In this document: positions 22,971-32,829 of the stretch, piece by piece
Layout: each line of letters begins with the position of its first letter
Numbering within the stretch: the first letter of the stretch is position 1
Source of the DNA: Bacteroidia bacterium
Lineage (GTDB): Bacteria; Bacteroidota; Bacteroidia; Bacteroidales; SM23-62
Reading direction: 5' to 3'
DNA length: 40,771 nt
Assembly: GCA_041480755.1 (NCBI GenBank)
Contig: JBGPAO010000003.1
Span: 1-40,771 of the forward strand
Translations under genes and position numbers: made by a program
The notes under the pieces: model-generated
Seen by the model: only the letters and a program-made list of their open reading frames with translations
Databases searched by the model: none
What the model was told of the DNA's origin: nothing

Positions 22971-23546
22971 ATGATATCAAGAGTCTCTGTTTTTTGTGCA
23001 TCCAGTCAGAAAATTGACCCTGTTTATTTCAAAGATACCCTTGAACTGGGCGAAATTCTTACCAGAAATAACATAAGTGTTTATTATGGAGGCGGTGCTA
23101 TCGGCCTGATGGGATACCTTGCTGATACAATTCTTAAAAATGGCGGGCATATTACGGGAATAATCCCCCGGTTTATGATTGAACAGGGCTGGGGACATCC
23201 TGAGGTTGATCACATTATTGTCGGTGACATGCATGAAAGAAAGAAAAAGCTTGCTGAAACAGATGCTGTAATTGCTCTTCCGGGTGGCGTCGGAACTATG
23301 GAAGAACTGCTTGAGATGATAACCTTAAAACAACTTGGTAAATTGCTGGTTCCTATTGTGATCTTAAATACAAATGGATTTTTTGATCCTCTCCTGAAAT
23401 TATTTGGCCAGATGATTGAACAGCACTTCATGCGGGAAATCCATAGTAAAATATGGACTTTTGTTAATAAACCATCTGAAGTAATGGAGGCAATCAGGAA
23501 TGCTCCCGATTGGGATGGATCTGCAACAAAATACGCTCCCTCTTAA
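22971..23546 (+). CDS. LOG family (TIGR00730-like) nucleotide phosphoribohydrolase
   Basis: VFCASS, YGGG..GLMG, MHERK and LPGGVGTMEE. Confidence 0.93.
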   Translation: MISRVSVFCASSQKIDPVYFKDTLELGEILTRNNISVYYGGGAIGLMGYLADTILKNGGHITGIIPRFMIEQGWGHPEVDHIIVGDMHERKKKLAETDAVIALPGGVGTMEELLEMITLKQLGKLLVPIVILNTNGFFDPLLKLFGQMIEQHFMREIHSKIWTFVNKPSEVMEAIRNAPDWDGSATKYAPS

Positions 23547-26500
23547 AACCTGCGGCCAATTACAAGTATATCATCAATTTGTTCTATATCTCCCCTCCAG
23601 GCTTCAATTGTACTGTCCAGAATTGATCTCTGCTCCTCCATATTCTTATCCTGGATCTTCAGGAGGAGTTCTTTCATCGGTGCTGATTTGAATTTTTTTC
23701 CTGCAATTCCTCCAAACTGATCAGCATATCCGTCAGAAAATATGTAAATGGTATCCCCCTCCCTGATTTTTATGATATGATTTGTGAATATTTTTTCCTG
23801 AACATCCGTAACCGATCGGCCGATTGCGTAGTGATCACCCTTCGTTTCAGTAAGTTTCCCATTTCTTATCAAATAAATCGGATTATATGCTCCTGAGAAT
23901 TCCAGTACTTTTTCCTCCCTGTTATAGCATACCAGGGTCATATCCATCCCATCTTTAATAATGTTTTTTTCCTCAGCACCATGCTGCAGCGTATTGTTCA
24001 CCTCCTTGTCAAGATGCCACAGGATATCAGAGGGTTTCAGAATCCCATATTCTTTCACAATCTTGTTAAGCATGTTGTAGCCAATTATCGACATGAAAGC
24101 TCCCGGAACACCATGTCCGGTACAATCAACAGCGGCAATAAACTCTTTTCCATCCTTCTCGACCAGCCAGTAGAAATCACCACTGACTATAGCCTTGGGT
24201 TTAAACAGTATAAATGTCTGGCGGAATGGTATTTCCTGTGGAAGTATGGCAACCTGGATTCGTTTAGCATATTCGATTGAATCGGTAATATCCTTATTTT
24301 TCTGGGCAAGCTCTTCTTTCTGTGCGACTACTAATGCAGTCCTTTGCTTTACTTTCTCTTCCAGAATCCTGTTTTCGCGTCTTAACTTTTGTTCACGAAT
24401 TTTAATATAAAGAAGTATAATTCCGGACCCTGCCAGAATGCAAATCAATATGAACCACCAGGTCTGGTAAAACGGAGGCCTTATCTGAAAAGCAAACTGA
24501 ACAGGTTCCGAATTCCAAATACCGTCATTGTTCCTGGCCTTTACCATAAAAACATACTTGCCCGCCTTTAAAGCCGGGTAGGTGGCTGTTGTTTGATCTG
24601 TTTCAGGCATCCAGTCGATATCAGCTCCTTCAAGCTTAAATTTATACCTTACCGCATCCGGATTTATCAGGCATATGCTTGTAAAGTCAAAAATAACAGA
24701 ATTTTCATGGTGTTTCAGCTTCATACCCTGCTTCATCTCCCTATCCCCCAGGTTTATCCTCATTCCTGTAATGTGGGTGAGTGGTTCGATATTTAACCGG
24801 CGTTCAAGCTCAGGATCATACCTGGTAACACCGGCCACAGTTCCGAACCACATCCTGCCCTCCCTGTCCCTGAATACTGCATTATTTTTTGTCTCAATCC
24901 CCGTAAATCCGTTCTTTTTGCTGTAAGTGTATATCATATCTTCACTTCGGGAGAACTTATTAAGTCCCCTGTTGGTTCCGATATAGACATTATTTTCCTG
25001 ATCAACTGCAACAAGCGTTATCAGGTTGGCAAGCAGTCCGTTTTGTCTTGAGAAATGTGCAGCAACTGTATCTTCTGAAATTGCATAAACTCCCTGTCCT
25101 TCTGTTCCGGTCCATATCCACCCTTCCTTATCTTCTGTGATACAAGTCGGGGTAAATTCAGCATGAAGATCGACCTTCATTATCGTATCAGATAAAATCC
25201 TTGCCAGGCCCTTGCCGCGAGCACCAACCCATACTGTGCCCTTTGAGTCAGCAAAAATCGCAGAAATATCCGAACCGGGAAGACCATTGATCTGAGTCAA
25301 ACGTTCTACCTGATTATTATCGATATCATAGTAAAGAAGGCCATCTATTGTACCTACCCATAGATTATTCTCATTGTCTATCTCCATTGCAGTTACTATG
25401 CCCTGCCTGTTGTATGAATTCAGAAGAAAATTATAGTTGAACCTTGACTGGGACGGAATATATTCAAAAGTACCCGCATCATTTGTTCCGATCCAAATAT
25501 GACCATTACGGTCTTCCCTTATATATCTGATCTGGTTCCCCATCTGGTACCTCTCAGGAGTTACATGATGGAATTGTTTGTCTTTGCTTAATGATGGATT
25601 ATATATCGTTATGCCCGCATTGGTGCCAAACCAGTAATTCCCGGAACAGTCCTGAAGAATAGCCCATACCTGATTGTCAATGATCCCATCATTTGTCGAA
25701 TAGGATATGAAATGATCACCTTTAAAAATTGCCAGTCCATTTTCATTGGTTCCTATGAGAATATTTCCTTCGATATCCTCGGTAATACATCGAATCTTGC
25801 TGTCGGGTAATCCGTTTAAGGTGTTAAAATTCTGGATCCTGTCACCGGTGAACCTGCTGATTCCCCCACCCCAGGTTCCGGCCCAGATATTACCATATCT
25901 GTCCTCAAATACTGAATTGATTATATTATTTGCCAGTCCGTCACGGGTAGTATAAAACAAAAAAGAATCCCTGGCTGTCTCATATTTATAAAGCCCGCCA
26001 TTATGGGTACCAAACCAGAAATTCCCTTTTGAATCCTCCAAAAGAGTAATGATCTGGAAGTACAGTGGCATCTTTTCTATAACAAACTGTTCAAAATCGT
26101 TTGTATTCCTGTTATATTTTTTAATGCCGACATCAGTTACTAAATATAATGTGCTGTCTCTTCCAACATAAGATCTAAACACCTGATCGCTGAGTCTTTT
26201 TCCGAGGTATTGTTCATATCTGAGTTCCGTCATCAAAGCATCAGGATTCCATATACATACTGCACCACTACCTGCTGTTGCGATCCATAATTTGCCATCC
26301 TGATCAATTGAAAAAGAAGTAATATCGCTTTTAAGCAATTGAGATAAGGAATCAAGCCGCTCAAATTTTTTTCCGTTATAACGGGTTATGCCTCCGCCCT
26401 TATGTCCAAACCAGATTGTTCCTGAATTATCCTGGATAATTGCCTGTACACCGTTGATTGCAAGGCCATCTTCAGTAGTAAAGTTATCAAATAAAACTCC

Positions 26501-26725
26501 ATCAAACCGCGACACACCACCATCAGTTCCCAGCCACACATAATCATTTTTATCCTGGATTATAGTATAGACCTTGGACTGCGCCAGTCCCTGCTGAACA
26601 CTATATATGTCAAAGAAATAGGTCTGTGCTTCAGAAATTTGTAATTGAAAAAAGAGAACCAAAAAAAAAGCTATCCGCAACAGATTGCGAATAGCTTTTT
26701 TGAATCCCCCAAGTTCATGTACCAT
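23543..26725 (-). CDS. Membrane sensor phosphatase: beta-propeller (Reg_prop) repeats + Y_Y_Y + TM + SpoIIE/PP2C domain
   Basis: Signal ending SEA-Q; many D..G..W.GT..G repeats; YKFKLEG..W..Y..L..G.Y.F.VKA.N.DG.W; TM WWFILICILAG; PP2C motifs VSGDFYW, DCTGHGVPGA, DGMD, SDGYADQFGG and DDIL. Confidence 0.92.
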   Translation of the reverse strand: MVHELGGFKKAIRNLLRIAFFLVLFFQLQISEAQTYFFDIYSVQQGLAQSKVYTIIQDKNDYVWLGTDGGVSRFDGVLFDNFTTEDGLAINGVQAIIQDNSGTIWFGHKGGGITRYNGKKFERLDSLSQLLKSDITSFSIDQDGKLWIATAGSGAVCIWNPDALMTELRYEQYLGKRLSDQVFRSYVGRDSTLYLVTDVGIKKYNRNTNDFEQFVIEKMPLYFQIITLLEDSKGNFWFGTHNGGLYKYETARDSFLFYTTRDGLANNIINSVFEDRYGNIWAGTWGGGISRFTGDRIQNFNTLNGLPDSKIRCITEDIEGNILIGTNENGLAIFKGDHFISYSTNDGIIDNQVWAILQDCSGNYWFGTNAGITIYNPSLSKDKQFHHVTPERYQMGNQIRYIREDRNGHIWIGTNDAGTFEYIPSQSRFNYNFLLNSYNRQGIVTAMEIDNENNLWVGTIDGLLYYDIDNNQVERLTQINGLPGSDISAIFADSKGTVWVGARGKGLARILSDTIMKVDLHAEFTPTCITEDKEGWIWTGTEGQGVYAISEDTVAAHFSRQNGLLANLITLVAVDQENNVYIGTNRGLNKFSRSEDMIYTYSKKNGFTGIETKNNAVFRDREGRMWFGTVAGVTRYDPELERRLNIEPLTHITGMRINLGDREMKQGMKLKHHENSVIFDFTSICLINPDAVRYKFKLEGADIDWMPETDQTTATYPALKAGKYVFMVKARNNDGIWNSEPVQFAFQIRPPFYQTWWFILICILAGSGIILLYIKIREQKLRRENRILEEKVKQRTALVVAQKEELAQKNKDITDSIEYAKRIQVAILPQEIPFRQTFILFKPKAIVSGDFYWLVEKDGKEFIAAVDCTGHGVPGAFMSIIGYNMLNKIVKEYGILKPSDILWHLDKEVNNTLQHGAEEKNIIKDGMDMTLVCYNREEKVLEFSGAYNPIYLIRNGKLTETKGDHYAIGRSVTDVQEKIFTNHIIKIREGDTIYIFSDGYADQFGGIAGKKFKSAPMKELLLKIQDKNMEEQRSILDSTIEAWRGDIEQIDDILVIGRRF

Positions 26726-26741
26726 AAAGTTAGGCTTAATC

Positions 26742-29090
26742 TTACTTTAACATAAAAAAGAATGTTCCGTCTTCATCTTCCAAACCGGCAATTTTACCAA
26801 ATTGGGGCTTTTGCTGGTTATTCTTGACTACTGCCGTAGTAACTTTAGTTACGATGCTTTCAATTGGAATACATGCATCAGGACTGTTAGAAAGTGAATT
26901 GGCAAATGTCCTTGTAAATTGGGAATTATCAATTGCCAGTTGATAACCTGCTGAAGAGAAGACCTGTGACGATTTGAAACGGGTTGCCTGCCAGTCATCA
27001 CAACTCCTTTCCTTCAGATCTGACCTCATTGCCTGGTAAAAACTGGGTCCGGATTCACAGGCATCAGTAATAACCAGAGTATGAGTTACATAATTTGCAT
27101 ATGATTGCATTGAAGCTTTCAGCGCATTGATATTAAAATAAGTGAATTCATCCTCCCTTTTGGCATCTGTGGGGATCCAGTAACCTGTTTCATTGATAAA
27201 CTTACCATGCCCTGCATACCAGATCAATATTGAGTTCACCCGGTTGCTTCTGACAAGATCTCTCAATTCAATAGAGAAAAATCTTTCCATATCACTTTTA
27301 GTCATGTTCTTTTTATCCACAATATTATGTATCTGGTATTTTGCCAGGGCTGATTTCATCAGGCTTACATCTTTTGGTGGTCCTTCGAGGCTTGGAAATG
27401 TCTCATAATCCGAATTTTCAATGAAAACCGCCCATGTCTTGCCCATGGGATTAGCTGCTGATATTACAGCAGCATCACGGTTCAGTGTGAATTCAGCATC
27501 TGTTCTGTTACCATAAACATCTGTTACAATTACTGTGATTTTGTTTTTGTTCAATACATCGAGATTTGCAGAAAAAGAAGGATTGATCTCATCAGGTATA
27601 TAACTGGCCAAAACTCCGTTGATAAGTATGCTCTTAATAAGACTTTCATCCTCGATTTTACCCTCTACATAAACAGTCGGACTATTCGAATCAAGATAAA
27701 TCTGTCCATCATCTGATGCATATGGAGCTATAATAAAAACTCCCGGAGCACCTACTTCAGTGAAATTGATTGCATAGCGTCCTGATACCGTATTATCATA
27801 AACATCGGTAGCTGTAATTAAAACCTCTTCCTTATTATGTATATCCAGTGCAACCAGGAATTCATATTTTCCCGACTCCTCATTCCTGTTGACAGGTATC
27901 TGCTGGTTGTCAATTGTTAATGATTTAATATCACTTTCATCCTCAATCATACCTTTCATAGTAACAATAGCTGAACCCTTTGGAAATTGAAGCAAAGCTT
28001 CGTCTCTAAGTTGTGGTTCAAGAATTACAATGACCGGTTTATTGGCTTCCCTGTATAATTCGAATAGTCTTCCTTTAGTCTCTTCCATCAGTCTCTGCGC
28101 CTGAGGATCAGATCCTGATAATGGTGTAAGGGCTTCATAATCTTTTATTGCTGCTTTGTAGTTAGCTATCTGTTCATAGGAATATGCTCTTTTATATAAT
28201 GCCTGAGCGTTTTGGGGATTTATCATCAGAACTTTGGTAAAATCATTGATAGCGTTGGTATGCTGGGTGAAATCCTGGTAATAACAACCGCGTATAAAAT
28301 ACATCTCCTCATCGTCAGGATTCATAAGGATATTTTTTGATATGTCGTCAATTGCTTTCGGATAATCTAATTGCTTGATATATATCTTGCTCCTGACCAG
28401 GTATGCCTTTCTGTTATTAGGATCCAGCCCGATAGCATTATTAACATGATTAAGGGCAAATTGCACCTTATCCAGCTGCAGCCTCAGTTCTGCAAGGGAT
28501 ATATATGCGTTGACGTGTCTCGGATCTCTTCCTACAGTTTTAATAAAGTCCTCTTCAGCTGCGCTGAAACGGCCTAACTGTACATTTATCAATCCCCGTA
28601 AATAAAAATTCTCAGCTGTTTCCTTCAAGGTAAGAGCTGTATTACAGGTTGCCATTGCCTCTTCATACTTCCCCAGAGCCATAAGGGATTTTGCCTTAAT
28701 TACATATCCATCCGGATTGGTTTTTTTCAGGATAATTGATGCATCAGCTTTATCAATTGCTTTCTGATATTCCCCAAGCAGGAAATTTAATCTTGCACTC
28801 TGGTAAAAGACATCTGTATTATTACCCAGAAAAGTGGATGCCCGGTCATAATCCTCGGCTGCTTCTTTCAGCATGTTGATTCTCTCATAAGCATTCGCCC
28901 TTGCCAGGTAGGCATTGGCAAAATCTGGCTGCAGGTCGAGTGCTTTGGTGAATTGGTCGATGGCATCCTTATAATTACCAGCCGTAACAAACTCAACGCC
29001 GGTTTTAAAAAACTTTTTTGCATTCTGTGAAAATACAATTGCTGGTATGAACAATAAAAAAATAAAAATCAGAAATTTTGTAGTTCTCAT
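26742..29090 (-). CDS. Exported TPR + two Ig-like repeats + caspase-like (peptidase C14) protein
   Basis: Signal MRTTKFLIFIFLLFIPAIVFS-Q (start moved to 29090); about 9-10 TPR units; duplicated G.IEDES.IKS..I beta modules; C14 motifs YAGHG, GYWIP.DA and DACESG. Confidence 0.88.
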   Translation of the reverse strand: MRTTKFLIFIFLLFIPAIVFSQNAKKFFKTGVEFVTAGNYKDAIDQFTKALDLQPDFANAYLARANAYERINMLKEAAEDYDRASTFLGNNTDVFYQSARLNFLLGEYQKAIDKADASIILKKTNPDGYVIKAKSLMALGKYEEAMATCNTALTLKETAENFYLRGLINVQLGRFSAAEEDFIKTVGRDPRHVNAYISLAELRLQLDKVQFALNHVNNAIGLDPNNRKAYLVRSKIYIKQLDYPKAIDDISKNILMNPDDEEMYFIRGCYYQDFTQHTNAINDFTKVLMINPQNAQALYKRAYSYEQIANYKAAIKDYEALTPLSGSDPQAQRLMEETKGRLFELYREANKPVIVILEPQLRDEALLQFPKGSAIVTMKGMIEDESDIKSLTIDNQQIPVNRNEESGKYEFLVALDIHNKEEVLITATDVYDNTVSGRYAINFTEVGAPGVFIIAPYASDDGQIYLDSNSPTVYVEGKIEDESLIKSILINGVLASYIPDEINPSFSANLDVLNKNKITVIVTDVYGNRTDAEFTLNRDAAVISAANPMGKTWAVFIENSDYETFPSLEGPPKDVSLMKSALAKYQIHNIVDKKNMTKSDMERFFSIELRDLVRSNRVNSILIWYAGHGKFINETGYWIPTDAKREDEFTYFNINALKASMQSYANYVTHTLVITDACESGPSFYQAMRSDLKERSCDDWQATRFKSSQVFSSAGYQLAIDNSQFTRTFANSLSNSPDACIPIESIVTKVTTAVVKNNQQKPQFGKIAGLEDEDGTFFFMLK

Positions 29091-29169
29091 TTTATGCAAT
29101 TTATTGTTAAAATTAATAATATTATACGTATTGAAAACCATGTAAGTTGCAAAAAATCTTTGTGTTATA

Positions 29170-29177
29170 CAAATTTA
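29170..29177 (-). promoter_or_regulatory. -7 element (TAAATTTG) upstream of the TPR-caspase/sensor pair
   Basis: Minus-strand TAnnTTTG between the ribD stop and the TPR-caspase start. Confidence 0.45.
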
Positions 29178-29195
29178 TTTTGTCTAACAGGTATT

Positions 29196-30257
29196 TTAAT
29201 ATGAATCTTTGTTCCTATAAATCTTTAACAGACTTTCTGAGAATTCTAATTCTTCGACCGGTTCTGAACTAATGACCGGGGCCGGAACACCTTTTCCAAA
29301 AGTATTGTTGCCGGTAAAAATCCTTGCTTCATCCCATACATCATGCTTTAGGAACTCATCAATCAGTATTTTTCCCCCTTCAACAATGAGCGATTGTACA
29401 TTACTTGTGTAAAGAAAGTCAAGAACAGCTGGTAATGGATCTTTATTTTTTTCAAGCAGAATAAATTTCAGGTTGTTCTTATCACTTCTGGGTATATGAG
29501 TAAACACAATTGTTTCCGCAGAACCATCCATGATGTGCAGATCACCGGACAACCTTGCTTCCCTGTCGATAACAATACGTAATGGATCTTTACCTGGCCA
29601 GTTCCTTGTCGTCAATTGGGGATTATCCTTAATTACAGTCCTTGAGCCAACAAGTATAGCTTGCTCTTCAGCTCTCCATTTATGAACGAGGCGGCGGCAA
29701 GCCTCATCTGTTATCCAGGTGATCTTTCTTTTCGCATTCTCATTCCTTTCAAGATCAATAAAGCTGTCTTTTGTTTGCGCCCATTTAAGGATAATATAAG
29801 GCCGTTTTTTCATATAGAAAGTGAAAAATCTTCTGTTCAGGTGAAGGCATTCTTCTTTCACTATATCAGTAACAACATATATGCCGTTTTCCTTAAGCCA
29901 ATTGATCCCCATTCCACTGACTATTGGATTTGGATCTAATGTTCCTGTAATAACCACAGGAACTTTTTTTTCAACTATAAGCTTTGTACAGGGAGGTGTT
30001 TTACCATAATGAGAACAGGGTTCAAGATTTACATAAAGAACTGAGTTTTTTAAAATGGAAGGTTTTGAAATACTGTTAATTGCCATAACTTCAGCATGCG
30101 GGCCACCAAAAAAATTATGATACCCTTCACCTATAATACGGTCTTCACAGACAATAACACAGCCTACCATTGGATTTGGAGCAGTGCTGCCAAGCCCTTT
30201 TTCGGCAAGGTCAATACAGCGCCTCATATATTTTTCATGCCCCTCCAAAATGCTCAA
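29196..30257 (-). CDS. ribD: Riboflavin biosynthesis bifunctional deaminase/reductase
   Basis: PNPMVGCVIV, HAE, LEPCSHYGKTPPC, DNPQLT.R and VEGG; TTG start uncertain. Confidence 0.97.
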   Translation of the reverse strand: MSILEGHEKYMRRCIDLAEKGLGSTAPNPMVGCVIVCEDRIIGEGYHNFFGGPHAEVMAINSISKPSILKNSVLYVNLEPCSHYGKTPPCTKLIVEKKVPVVITGTLDPNPIVSGMGINWLKENGIYVVTDIVKEECLHLNRRFFTFYMKKRPYIILKWAQTKDSFIDLERNENAKRKITWITDEACRRLVHKWRAEEQAILVGSRTVIKDNPQLTTRNWPGKDPLRIVIDREARLSGDLHIMDGSAETIVFTHIPRSDKNNLKFILLEKNKDPLPAVLDFLYTSNVQSLIVEGGKILIDEFLKHDVWDEARIFTGNNTFGKGVPAPVISSEPVEELEFSESLLKIYRNKDSY

Positions 30258-31739: not shown

Positions 31740-32829
31740 ATGATAACTTCAGAACAGATCAAAGAATTAGTAAGGCGGGAGAATTCGCTGAGGAGGCATC
31801 TTTGACATCGATAACAAACTTGACCTGATTAATAAGAGCGAAGAAATCACCCACGCTCCTGATTTCTGGAATGATCCTCAATCTGCAGAAGAAAAACTGA
31901 GAGAGATTTCACGATTAAAATCATGGACGACCTCTTATAATAAGGTAAAAACCAATCTGGATGATCTTGGAGTGATGTATGAATTCTTCAATGAGGGGGA
32001 TGCGACTGAAAAGGATGTCACGGATCAGTACAACGCAACACTTAAACTTATTGAGGAGCTTGAATTCCGCAATATGCTGAGCAGTGAAGAAGACGTACTG
32101 GGAGCTATACTTAAAATAAATCCGGGTGCTGGAGGTACAGAAAGCCAGGATTGGGCAATGATGCTTATGCGTATGTATATCCGGTGGGGTGAAAGAAATA
32201 ATTATAATGTCAGGGAGATTGCTTATCTGCCGGGTGATGAAGCCGGGATTAAGTCTGTAACCCTTGAATTTACAGGAGATTATGCGTATGGTTACCTTAA
32301 AAGCGAGAACGGGGTTCACCGGCTGGTAAGACTGTCCCCCTTTGATTCAAATAACAGGCGGCACACTTCATTTGCATCTGTTTTCGTATCTCCAATTATT
32401 GATGATTCAATCGAAATTGTGATCAACCCATCTGATATTTCATGGGAGACTTACCGTTCCAGCGGGGCTGGCGGTCAAAATGTAAACAAAGTTGAAACGG
32501 CAGTGAGGTTACGGCATTTCCCTACCGGAATGGTAATTGAAAACCAGGAAACCCGGTCACAGTTAAAAAACAAGGAAAATGCCATGAAGATCCTGAGATC
32601 TCATCTCTATGAACTTGAACTCAGGAAAAGAAGAGAGATCCAGGCTGAAATAGAAGGACTGAAGAAAAAGATCGAGTGGGGTTCACAGATTCGCAGTTAT
32701 GTCCTTCATCCCTATAAGATGGTGAAGGATCTCCGGACTGATTATGAGACCTCGAATATACAGGACGTACTGGACGGCAATCTTAATGATTTCATTAAAG
32801 AATATTTGATGCATTATGGAGGTTCATGA
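31740..32829 (+). CDS. prfB: Peptide chain release factor 2 via programmed +1 frameshift (join 31740..31802, 31804..32829; about 362 aa)
   Basis: Upstream ORF MITSEQIKELVRRENSLRRHL ends at CTT TGA C. The +1 frame continues DIDNKLDL...FWNDP into the 31972 ORF, which has GTES.DW, SPF and GGQ motifs. Confidence 0.96.
31791..31806 (+). promoter_or_regulatory. prfB frameshift cassette AGGAGG-CAT-CTT-TGA-C
   Basis: Internal SD-like hexamer 3 nt before the slippery CTT-TGA-C. Confidence 0.93.

Follow-up and report, generated by a model that had tools for sequence, protein, structure and literature searches.

A Recurrent Gene Pair in Bacteroidales Encoding a Predicted Exported Caspase-Fold Protease and a Propeller-Type Sensor PP2C Phosphatase: A Candidate Cell-Envelope Signalling Unit

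Introduction

HTCS sensors bind glycan fragments, and in the DegS/RseA and SpoIVB-CtpB/SpoIVFB systems envelope signalling is controlled by PDZ serine proteases acting on anti-sigma or inhibitor proteins. SiaA/SiaB/SiaC(/SiaD) of Pseudomonas aeruginosa is, in the accessible parts of the papers describing it (PMC7647112 / bioRxiv 10.1101/674879, PMC7278518, PMC8457831), a threonine-phosphorylation partner switch. Within the C14 family, metacaspases and orthocaspases are treated in PMC6426788 and PMC5756287, and the accessible text of a 2012 survey (PMC3501461) catalogues bacterial C14 proteins that are fused to TPR and carry N-terminal signal or transmembrane segments. With exported TPR metacaspase architectures on record there, the premise of the original prediction for the locus studied here, namely that caspase-like proteins are mostly cytoplasmic, was overstated. 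Bacterial caspase homologues are numerous and few have a known job, those that are understood acting mostly in cytoplasmic defence or cell death; in Bacteroidota, sensor PP2C phosphatases that carry HTCS-like ectodomains are no less common and no better studied.

Here we describe a window of 40,771 nt (contig JBGPAO010000003.1 of the Bacteroidia assembly GCA_041480755.1, from an uncultured member of the Bacteroidales) in which a gene for a predicted exported caspase-fold protein (gene 1) is followed by one for a transmembrane sensor phosphatase (gene 2). Gene 2 resembles the HTCS sensors of Bacteroides (4a2l/4a2m, 3v9f, 3ott/3va6) in that a Reg_prop double propeller and a Y_Y_Y domain precede one transmembrane helix; unlike these, it has PP2C as its output, the Pfam hits of its 1060-aa product including neither a histidine kinase nor a receiver or an AraC-type DNA-binding domain, and is co-encoded with a predicted exported protease. 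Gene 1 shares with C14 proteins (MALT1, metacaspases, orthocaspases) the caspase/hemoglobinase fold, the His-Gly and Asp-Ala-Cys motifs and the dyad, with pseudo-variants occurring in both, and it differs from catalogued C14 proteins in that its product escaped the Pfam C14 model in our scans, is predicted to be exported, contains two Ig-like domains and is paired with a sensor phosphatase. The scheme proposed below is like DegS/RseA and SpoIVB-CtpB/SpoIVFB in concept, a periplasmic or intermembrane protease, acting at or near the outer domain of a membrane protein, starting a cytoplasmic response; unlike in those systems, the protease would have a caspase fold, the receiver would be a Ser/Thr phosphatase, and cleavage is putative.

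In literature coverage that excludes most subscription journals, no description of an exported caspase paired with a sensor phosphatase was found, nor a paper joining Peptidase_C14 and SpoIIE, nor anything on the pairing in work on Y_Y_Y, SpoIIE and propellers or on metacaspases, periplasmic proteins and partner switching, in line with the prediction that the pairing has no characterized example. Neighbouring genes for phosphatases, two-component proteins or kinases are likewise not discussed in the accessible part of the operon analysis in the 2012 survey (PMC3501461). The pair suggests an undescribed cell-envelope signalling unit. Its conserved and recurrent pairing provides a testable handle on both families and predicts a periplasmic signalling role for a caspase-fold protease, and with a likely downstream switch that can be named (SiaB/SiaC-type), phosphorylation of a defined small protein would serve as read-out.

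Results and Discussion

Layout of the Pair and Domain Structure of Gene 1

The two genes lie among housekeeping genes of the window (dnaE, trx, LOG, ribD, prmC, recX and prfB), and that they are co-oriented and 16 nt apart, as predicted, is borne out by their reading frames:

26742..29090, minus strand: gene 1, predicted exported protein with TPR, two Ig-like domains and a caspase-like (C14 fold) domain, 782 aa (reading frame, domains, fold, orthologue length)
26726..26741, minus strand: intergenic spacer of 16 nt between the gene 1 stop codon (26742-26744) and the gene 2 ATG (at 26725)
23543..26725, minus strand: gene 2, transmembrane sensor phosphatase, 1060 aa (reading frame and domain matches)

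Counted from its first ATG, the minus-strand reading frame of gene 1 (26742..29141) encodes 799 aa, and residue numbers given here for gene 1 refer to this translation; its orthologues are about 782 aa long, which fits a start at ATG 29090. Its features are as follows:

29028..29090, minus strand: putative signal peptide, type I, no lipobox Cys (judged by eye from the translation)
28107..29024, minus strand: TPR region of about 9 repeats, residues 40-345 (Pfam TPR_1 1.5e-28, TPR_2 1.6e-27, TPR_16 and others)
27462..28049, minus strand: two Ig-like beta-sandwich domains, residues 365-560 (Glucodextran_B match and AlphaFold2 model)
26745..27461, minus strand: caspase/hemoglobinase-fold domain, residues 561-799 (AlphaFold2, Foldseek, conserved dyad, weak NCBIfam match)
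27207-27209, minus strand: codon of His645 (dyad conservation)
27057-27059, minus strand: codon of Cys695 (dyad conservation)

By eye, the protein opens at ATG 29090 with a basic n-region, a hydrophobic core and a small-residue cleavage site. The middle part, scanned alone, matches Glucodextran_B (30.2 bits, 4.2e-07, cut-off 27), and in an AlphaFold2 model of residues 365-799 (pLDDT 93.1) the Ig-like domains have all-beta secondary structure at a pLDDT of about 90-97. Pfam Peptidase_C14 (PF00656) did not match the gene 1 protein, even when its last 240 aa were scanned at E<=10, and the NCBIfam model caspase_w_EACC1 matched at 2e-10, under its cut-off; the precomputed annotation does list PF00656 for orthologues with about 87% identity across residues 365-799, and caspase paralogues score 55-82 bits against it. 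When the model was compared with the PDB in Foldseek, the best matches were to the MALT1 paracaspase (E 2.9e-11, probability 1.00), with caspases 1, 3, 8 and 9 and metacaspase 7qp0 as further matches, all at probability 1.00. A PDB sequence search with the caspase part returned a weak MALT1 match (E 0.18) in whose alignment the His-Gly motif is paired. Both the His-Gly and the Asp-Ala-Cys motif are present, and His645 and Cys695 occur in 115/115 full-length orthologues. The model and its structural matches confirm the caspase fold of this domain, and both residues of the His/Cys dyad are intact at the canonical positions. Of the TPR, Ig and C14 protease originally predicted, the repeats, the Ig-like domains and the fold stand (Pfam, AlphaFold2, Foldseek), the fold being shown by structure where the Pfam C14 model misses the protein. 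We infer that the gene 1 product is a soluble periplasmic protein and predict it to be a catalytically competent caspase-type protease, its TPR and Ig-like domains probably recruiting a protein or peptide partner. A reading as a CRISPR-linked TPR-CHAT or defence protein was set aside, there being no CHAT domain among the Pfam hits, housekeeping genes on the flanks and a predicted signal peptide on the protein.

The Sensor Phosphatase

The product of gene 2 is divided as follows:

24482..26623, minus strand: predicted periplasmic ectodomain, Reg_prop double beta-propeller and Y_Y_Y, residues 35-748 (Pfam and PDB matches)
24398..24466, minus strand: single transmembrane helix, residues about 754-776 (read by eye from the translation)
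23546..24388, minus strand: coiled-coil linker and predicted cytoplasmic PP2C domain (SpoIIE family, SiaA-like), residues 780-1060 (Pfam, NCBIfam, PDB)

Pfam matches the protein to Reg_prop (1.2e-54), Y_Y_Y (1.7e-16) and SpoIIE (1.4e-15; PF07228, 58.2 bits at a cut-off of 25), and the ectodomain matches the PDB sequences 4a2l/4a2m (3.7e-61), 3v9f (3.6e-60) and 3ott (2.8e-31). The signal peptide, HTCS-style Reg_prop/Y_Y_Y ectodomain, single transmembrane helix and SpoIIE/PP2C domain ascribed to gene 2 beforehand were all recovered in these matches and the translation. In an alignment of 40 sensors, the Asp motifs that bind metal in PP2C (D850, D867, D925/D928, D998 and D1051/D1052) do not vary. 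The SiaA model (NCBIfam NF038263) aligns only with residues 779-1060, through the C-terminal 280 residues of the model (3.1e-57), and the full-length score of 194.5 bits lies under the equivalog cut-off of 700; the PP2C part further matches PDB 6k4e (5.8e-35). Judged from these matches, the gene 2 PP2C is expected to work like the catalytic part of SiaA, yet it is not a SiaA equivalog: unlike SiaA, for which we know of no protease partner, the gene 2 protein has an HTCS-type double propeller for sensing, in place of SiaA's N-terminal part.

Promoter Box and Junction

Two elements bear on the transcription of the pair:

29170..29177, minus strand: TAAATTTG, candidate Bacteroidota-type -7 box, 79 nt before ATG 29090 and 18 nt past the ribD stop
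26655..26707, minus strand: terminator-like hairpin with A6, a 17-bp stem including one G-U, a 4-nt loop and U9 (scan and folding)

The box TAAATTTG is the only minus-strand TAnnTTTG match within 25473-29296. Because TAnnTTTG is no more frequent in the window than expected by chance (39 observed vs 40.75 expected), the box named in the original prediction is not evidence on its own; ribD, which has the same orientation, ends just 18 nt upstream of it and may be read through into the pair. The 17-bp hairpin itself (26701..26664) and the U9 run after it do not figure in the original prediction. They lie inside the gene 2 reading frame, the hairpin within its first 62 nt, in a region about 24-70 nt from its start that encodes the Lys/Arg n-region and first Phe residues of the signal peptide. 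The hairpin folds at -33.6 kcal/mol (z -5.79, 0/200 shuffles), a terminator-like hairpin is found at 20/57 junctions vs 39/3205 background windows, and 12/15 of its base pairs show compensatory changes. The conserved hairpin at the junction qualifies the single operon behind one box that had been proposed. A search for RNA sequencing runs covering 25200-28200 of the window listed none. We regard co-transcription of the two genes as a reading of the layout in which the hairpin probably stops some transcripts before they extend into the sensor gene, and partial termination of this kind would yield much more protease than sensor; the same hairpin could instead mean that the two genes are largely expressed separately.

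Conservation of the Pairing

Adjacency was counted in three partly overlapping sets. The two genes adjoin in 18/23 determinable related genomes (27 genomes having the caspase gene), at 26/34 determinable loci (37 loci found with the single caspase domain as query) and at 23/25 determinable sensor-orthologue loci (32 found). The adjacency holds across at least five distinct neighbourhoods: a pyrH-type kinase and a transposase upstream with SiaB and SiaC downstream (L031), a response-regulator cyclase and a kinase upstream with YceD and FabH downstream (L035), Mdh and PHO4 (L022), Dxs and OmpA (L005), and an inverted dnaE (L009). Outside the syntenic block to which the window belongs, diverged paralogous modules of a C14 gene and a sensor gene, at 28-37% identity, keep the C14-then-sensor order. 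At 7 loci a 445-aa exported Peptidase_C14 protein (82 bits) stands ahead of a sensor 36-37% identical to that of the window, at 2 loci a 432-aa C14 protein (80 bits) stands ahead of one 32-33% identical, and at 1 locus a 263-aa caspase-only protein is followed, after 14 nt, by a sensor 44% identical. In the sensor tree the caspase-linked sensors form two fully supported clades (40/41 rows and 8/8 rows). The adjacency is conserved, contrary to the refuting outcome named with the original prediction, and since the pair is kept through changes of its flanks and recurs in diverged form, a functional link between the caspase and sensor genes is likely on these comparisons.

The link is not obligatory. 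At L001-L004 (one genus) and L030 the order is LOG, TPR-caspase, ribD, without the sensor, and in three such genomes (85-90% complete or of completeness not known) no sensor orthologue was found with all candidates scored. In at least 6 species the caspase is kept while a sensor orthologue either is not detectable or lies elsewhere; the two genes are about 24 kb apart in G109, the sensor and two TPR-caspases sit on separate contigs in G112, a caspase-only gene lies 89 kb from the sensor in G050, and in G062 a TPR-caspase is present with the sensor not adjoining. Other exported caspase paralogues have no neighbouring propeller-PP2C sensor at 16/17 loci of an order-wide, small and score-picked sample of caspases other than orthologues, in which no locus has a propeller sensor with a different output behind the caspase, and the four other caspase paralogues of the window's own genome are also not beside such sensors. 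Much of the adjacency, moreover, falls within a single block of housekeeping synteny (ribD - pair - LOG - trx - dnaE), so that part of the conservation of the pair is plain synteny.

The most serious alternative, which we consider unlikely but well worth entertaining, is that the two are neighbours without a shared mechanism: a general periplasmic TPR-caspase behind which a sensor gene was inserted once, to be kept there by synteny and a shared promoter. It would account for a caspase that is more widespread than the sensor and retained where the sensor is missing, for the unlinked genes of G109, G112 and G050, for the synteny of the block in most loci and for the terminator-like hairpin at the junction. 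It is opposed by the persistence of adjacency in at least five flanking contexts, by the modules of 28-37% identity that keep the identical gene order outside the block, and by the lack of room in the window for a promoter of the sensor's own, given the 16-nt gap and no minus-strand TAnnTTTG inside gene 1.

Output Pathway and Working Model

An output through RsbV/RsbW partners had been envisaged. The genome to which the window belongs (91% complete) contains one STAS gene only, a 119-aa open frame on contig C284, its HATPase_c_2 hits (one over cut-off) are confined to large ORFs of 353-891 aa, and among them no small kinase is clearly of the RsbW type; the genome does contain 11 SiaC-type and 4 SiaB-type genes over cut-off. 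With a SiaA-like PP2C beside these counts, RsbV/RsbW is not supported as the output, and SiaB/SiaC was preferred. The locus is like the SiaA system in the match of its PP2C to the C-terminal part of SiaA and to 6k4e, in the presence of both families in the genome and in the gene order at L031, where genes for a kinase of the SiaB family (156 bits, cut-off 85) and a protein of the SiaC family (146.5 bits in Pfam) come directly behind the orthologous pair. Unlike in the Sia system, the SiaB and SiaC genes are not adjacent to the pair in the window, and no diguanylate cyclase stands beside those examined in its own genome.

We lean slightly towards the view that the two genes form a conserved functional cell-envelope unit in which the protease sets a sensor PP2C acting on a SiaC-type protein. 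In our three-step working model, every step of which we infer, the protease would work at or next to the ectodomain in the periplasm, where it may make or trim the ligand that is sensed, or bind or clip the ectodomain itself. This action would set the activity of the PP2C domain, whose target would be a SiaC-type phosphoprotein; the PP2C would remove the phosphate and a SiaB-type kinase would put it back, kinase and phosphoprotein both being encoded elsewhere in the genome. A complex prediction for the caspase domain (560-799) and the ectodomain (35-755), each with its own alignment, returned no verdict (score 0.00) and speaks neither for nor against binding.

That proteolysis is irrelevant to signalling, the caspase-like protein being a non-cutting co-sensor whose caspase-fold, TPR and Ig-like domains bind the ectodomain or a ligand, in the way that periplasmic binding proteins tune other membrane sensors, appears improbable to us. 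Among 55 diverse representatives the catalytic His is lost in 7/55 and the Cys in 4/55, and in a distant clade without the sensor link Thr replaces Cys in 5/6 loci, so that some lineages keep the fold for a role other than catalysis; unlike the dyad, Cys714 and Cys757 do not vary (55/55). Periplasmic partners that switch a sensor also exist, as with ChiS and its chitin-binding protein (described in the accessible part of PMC12704726). Against a co-sensor, His and Cys are retained in every sensor-linked caspase, all 115 close orthologues and the sensor-linked paralogues included, the Cys-lost variants are those not beside a sensor, and the caspase domain is better conserved than any other gene 1 domain (mean identity to the window residue 0.835 vs 0.51-0.68). 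Least probable by far is a reversed direction in which the PP2C/SiaB/SiaC switch regulates expression or export of the caspase as an effector, for example of envelope remodelling or a programmed response: co-location of the genes and the absence of a diguanylate cyclase beside the SiaB/SiaC genes examined would suit it, but the protease gene lies upstream and would be transcribed first, the caspase is retained in genomes without the sensor, and nothing ties SiaC-type proteins to the promoter of the pair.

The protease-to-phosphatase model can be extended, in a form that we offer as speculative and on the whole doubtful, to exported caspase-fold proteases being dedicated periplasmic partners of propeller-type sensor phosphatases. 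Periplasmic proteolysis, by ectodomain cleavage or by release of a ligand from a TPR-bound protein, would then gate a transmembrane PP2C that in turn drives the SiaB/SiaC switch, the arrangement would be widespread in environmental Bacteroidales, and the hairpin would set the protease-to-sensor ratio; if true, signalling by a protease-gated Ser/Thr phosphatase would form a class not known before. The hairpin sequence serves at once as signal-peptide codons and as terminator-like RNA, an overlap of constraints that could explain the stoichiometry of the two products.

Two Predicted Exported Proteins with Intact Active Sites

Two minus-strand open reading frames fill positions 23543–29141, with the start of gene 2 lying 16 nt past the stop codon of gene 1:

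26742..29141, minus strand: gene 1, caspase-fold protein, 799 aa counted from the first ATG
23543..26725, minus strand: gene 2, sensor phosphatase, 1060 aa

Orthologues of gene 1 measure about 782 aa, in agreement with the originally predicted start at ATG 29090, which opens a predicted signal peptide (read by eye from the translation) with a basic n-region and a hydrophobic core and without a lipobox cysteine. Pfam places about nine TPR repeats in protein 1 (TPR_1 1.5e-28 and related families) and, with the middle part scanned alone, an Ig-like Glucodextran_B domain (30.2 bits vs a cut-off of 27). Its C-terminal 240 residues give no match to Pfam Peptidase_C14, even at E ≤ 10, the NCBIfam model caspase_w_EACC1 matches at 2e-10, under the model's cut-off, and the top PDB match to the caspase part by sequence search is a weak one to MALT1 (E 0.18). 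Because these profile matches are weak or absent, the fold was checked by structure prediction. An AlphaFold2 model of residues 365–799 (numbering of the 799-aa translation), built on 55 sequences and with a mean pLDDT of 93.1, comprises two β-sandwiches followed by an α/β domain, and a Foldseek search of the PDB matches it to MALT1 paracaspase (E 2.9e-11), caspases 1, 3, 8 and 9, CED-3 and yeast metacaspase, all with probability 1.00. The active site is intact: His645, in a His-Gly motif, and Cys695, in an Asp-Ala-Cys motif, are both kept in 115/115 full-length orthologues, in which no other part of the protein is as well conserved as the caspase domain. Of 55 more diverse sequences, 48 retain the His and 51 the Cys, and every one has Cys714 and Cys757, a pattern that would be compatible with a structural disulfide in a protein that is exported.

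Protein 2 consists of a predicted signal peptide, a Reg_prop double propeller (Pfam, 1.2e-54), Y_Y_Y (1.7e-16), one hydrophobic helix and a SpoIIE-family PP2C domain (58.2 bits vs a cut-off of 25), so that the domain description originally offered for both genes, namely signal peptides, caspase fold, Reg_prop/Y_Y_Y ectodomain, single helix and PP2C, proves correct. By sequence, the ectodomain is a homologue of the sensor domains whose structures are solved from Bacteroides hybrid two-component systems (4a2l/4a2m, 3.7e-61; 3v9f; 3ott), and the last 280 residues are homologous to chain 6k4e (5.8e-35). The C-terminus also matches the C-terminal part of the NCBIfam SiaA model at 3.1e-57, far under the equivalog cut-off. 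The PP2C metal-binding aspartates do not vary across 40 aligned sensors.

Conservation and Recurrence of the Pairing

The two genes had been proposed to form a functional pair, and their adjacency is conserved in other genomes in three sets that overlap in part through shared species and some shared contigs. A caspase-gene orthologue (E ≤ 1e-30) occurs in 27 of 60 related genomes, including 24/24 of the same family; counted by coordinates, and by inspected loci where doubtful, the sensor follows directly in 18 of the 27, is cleanly missing from the locus in four genomes of one genus (order LOG / caspase / ribD), lies 89 kb from a caspase-only gene in one (genome G050), and is cut off by contig ends in four. 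Searching with the caspase domain yielded 37 species-level loci, of which three are not judgeable; the sensor is directly downstream in 26 of the remaining 34. The eight loci that lack it are L024, L030, L040 and five of a distant clade (35–38% identity). A search with the sensor gave 80 loci, 32 of them orthologues (≥44% identity); the caspase gene precedes in 23 of the 25 judgeable ones, seven others beginning at a contig end, and is absent upstream at locus L065 and at a remnant, L071. An order-wide draw that took a single genome from each family gave caspase-domain matches (E ≤ 1e-25) in 22 of 81 genomes, and among the other judgeable genomes with the orthologous type the pair is adjacent in six of eight, the exceptions being genomes G062 and G050.

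In most of these loci the pair lies within a common block, ribD – pair – LOG – trx – dnaE, and this, taken alone, would weaken the argument for the pairing. The pair nevertheless stays intact in differing flanks. At L031 an amino-acid kinase family gene and a transposase lie upstream and SiaB and SiaC genes downstream; at L035 a response-regulator adenylate cyclase and a histidine-kinase-type ATPase precede the pair and YceD and FabH follow it; malate dehydrogenase and a phosphate transporter lie downstream at L022, and Dxs and an OmpA-family gene at L005; at L009 the pair is adjacent and dnaE is inverted. More telling are diverged paralogues found in the sensor search, which have their own caspase gene directly upstream and lie outside the syntenic block. 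Seven loci have the order Kelch-like lipoprotein, 263-aa exported protein, 445-aa exported Peptidase_C14 protein (82 bits) and 1081-aa Reg_prop/Y_Y_Y/SpoIIE sensor, with 36–37% identity to the window's sensor and about 30% to its caspase; in two loci a 432-aa C14 protein (80 bits) precedes a sensor of 32–33% identity; and at L082 a 263-aa caspase-only protein (55 bits) lies 14 nt ahead of a sensor of 44% identity. Orthologous and diverged modules coexist in single genomes (L056 with L072, L017/L052 with L074, L078 with L077), and contig C34 of the window's own genome carries, at its edge, the beginning of a diverged module. Since the pair persists in altered flanks and recurs outside the block, synteny alone does not explain the pairing.

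In a FastTree phylogeny of 56 sensors, the caspase-linked ones fall into two fully supported clades (40/41 and 8/8 rows); the pairing, with one or two origins, is kept across deep divergence. What all versions of the module have in common is the caspase domain, the N-terminal parts varying from TPR + Ig through Ig-like only to none, and His and Cys are kept in all sensor-linked caspases, with Thr replacing Cys in 5/6 loci of the distant unlinked clade. These Thr-bearing TPR-Ig-caspases (35–38% identity; L042, L044–L047) have no adjoining sensor, and their neighbors include a DUF7033 protein and an ABC ATPase. The two additional co-oriented exported genes ahead of caspase and sensor at L072–L077 and L083 encode a putative lipoprotein of ~530 aa, Kelch-like, and the 263-aa protein, which has no Pfam match and a homologue of which adjoins the caspase on C34.

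The link is not obligatory. Scoring of every candidate revealed no sensor orthologue in genomes G024, G023 and G110, which hold only paralogues (33% identity, or 40% over the C-terminal half). G109 has its sensor (52% identity) and its caspase on one contig, ~24 kb apart, and in G112 the sensor stands alone, two TPR-caspases (46% and 43% identity) being located on other contigs with no sensor adjoining. The complete chromosome of G113 carries a 481-aa TPR-Ig stub without caspase domain at the ribD site (L153) and, ~590 kb away, a C-terminal sensor remnant by trx and dnaE (L071), which looks like one rearrangement with its breakpoint inside the pair that broke both genes. Exported caspase paralogues likewise lack an adjoining sensor in 16/17 sampled loci and in four further cases in the window's own genome. 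In none of those 17 loci, a small sample picked by score, is the caspase followed by a propeller sensor whose output is other than PP2C. The closest sensor paralogue of that genome (C85:1-4159, 33% identity) is preceded not by a caspase but by an unrelated exported protein, and each propeller-PP2C sensor may have its own exported partner. The protein ahead of the C85 paralogue is 322 aa long and conserved (loci L122 and L125), with no family among the Pfam models tested; Carboxylicivirga has two further exported proteins ahead of that sensor paralogue.

Promoter Candidate and Hairpin at the Gene Junction

The pair is flanked by housekeeping genes, with rpsP, rimM, dnaE, trx and LOG on one side and ribD (same strand, directly upstream), prmC, recX, prfB, a CAP-domain protein, fumC and methylmalonyl-CoA mutase on the other. 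Two transcriptional elements come into consideration:

29170-29177, minus strand: candidate promoter box TAAATTTG, the next minus-strand match being only at 25472
26701..26664, minus strand: terminator-like hairpin from a terminator scan, 17-bp stem with one G-U, 4-nt loop, A6 before and U9 after

The single box predicted ahead of the pair is present, but motifs of the TAAATTTG type occur at chance frequency (39 in the window vs 40.75 by chance) and ribD ends 18 nt before it, so that the box is no more than a candidate promoter and the pair may or may not be transcribed independently of ribD.

The hairpin falls within the coding sequence of the sensor, 24 nt past the ATG. A 106-nt stretch spanning it folds at −33.6 kcal/mol (z −5.79; 0/200 shuffles fold as well). 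The element with its flanking runs (26655-26707, minus strand) is formed by the codons of the sensor signal peptide, the A-run being the Lys-Lys codons of the n-region and the U-run the first Phe-Phe codons of the hydrophobic core. It is conserved: a stringent scan, requiring a perfect stem of 8 bp or more and then a T-run, finds a hairpin at 20/57 distinct caspase-to-sensor junctions vs 39/3205 other 200-nt windows of the same loci, and several further junctions have one with a mismatch. In an alignment of 13 junctions, chosen for a scan-positive hairpin, which biases the percentage of paired positions and not compensatory changes at homologous coding positions, both-side, pair-keeping changes occur at 12/15 predicted pairs. 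As the stem is kept by compensatory changes in orthologues, the same bases serve both protein code and RNA structure. In the diverged modules the hairpin sits in the intergenic spacer. The window's sensor has no room for a promoter of its own, so its mRNA must read through the hairpin, which probably acts as a partial terminator or attenuator and would then set a high protease-to-sensor ratio.

Output Side of the Sensor

RsbV/RsbW partners had been proposed for the phosphatase. In the window's own genome (91% complete, 532 contigs) we found one STAS gene, and HATPase_c_2 matches only within large ORFs, which lends this output no support. The same genome has 15 SpoIIE matches as well as 11 SiaC-family and four SiaB-family kinase matches over cut-off, with SiaB–SiaC pairs on three contigs and a SpoIIE–SiaC pair on a fourth; none of the SiaB/SiaC genes lies within the window. 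This set looks like a many-input phospho-switch network. At L031 a SiaB-family kinase (156 bits, cut-off 85) directly follows the orthologous pair, together with a SiaC-family protein (Pfam 146.5 bits; NCBIfam 103 bits, under the equivalog cut-off of 150). On the strength of this gene order and the own-genome set, the sensor is best read as a putative one of many inputs to a SiaB/SiaC-type phospho-switch, and such a downstream switch is plausible.

The own-genome switch contigs are C153, C103, C138 and C157 (loci L127–L130), SiaB-family here meaning Pfam DUF6272. C103 has one ORF with two tandem SiaB-type domains, and on C153 two SiaC genes flank a CtpB-like S41 peptidase. No diguanylate cyclase was found beside the own-genome SiaB/SiaC genes examined.

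Proposed Mechanism and Relation to Known Systems

Of the original interpretation, the pairing stands, being conserved and recurrent, and the RsbV/RsbW output is not supported. We consider a functional link between caspase and sensor somewhat probable. Protease and sensor ectodomain would meet in the periplasm, where the protease could alter PP2C activity by cutting either the ectodomain or a ligand precursor bound to the TPR and Ig parts; direct contact or cleavage between protease and ectodomain seems doubtful.

A 2012 C14 survey (PMC3501461), whose text holds no passage on phosphatase, two-component or kinase neighbors, documents bacterial C14 homologues that carry TPR repeats and have a signal or transmembrane segment at the N-terminus. 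The ectodomain is of a known kind (HTCS sensor domains) and so is the PP2C switch (SiaABC). We found no description of the caspase–sensor–phosphatase combination, and no paper treating Peptidase_C14 together with SpoIIE, in a literature search whose coverage excluded most subscription journals. The pair is a variant of two known kinds of system, the membrane sensor that has an accessory periplasmic protein as partner and the phosphatase switch of SiaA type, and the combination matters in that it gives an exported caspase-fold protease a testable role.

In the ribD-side flank, the prfB ORF as listed (31972-32829) starts within the PCRF domain (profile positions 68–194), which would fit the programmed +1 frameshift usual for release factor 2, its first part then being encoded in a different frame.
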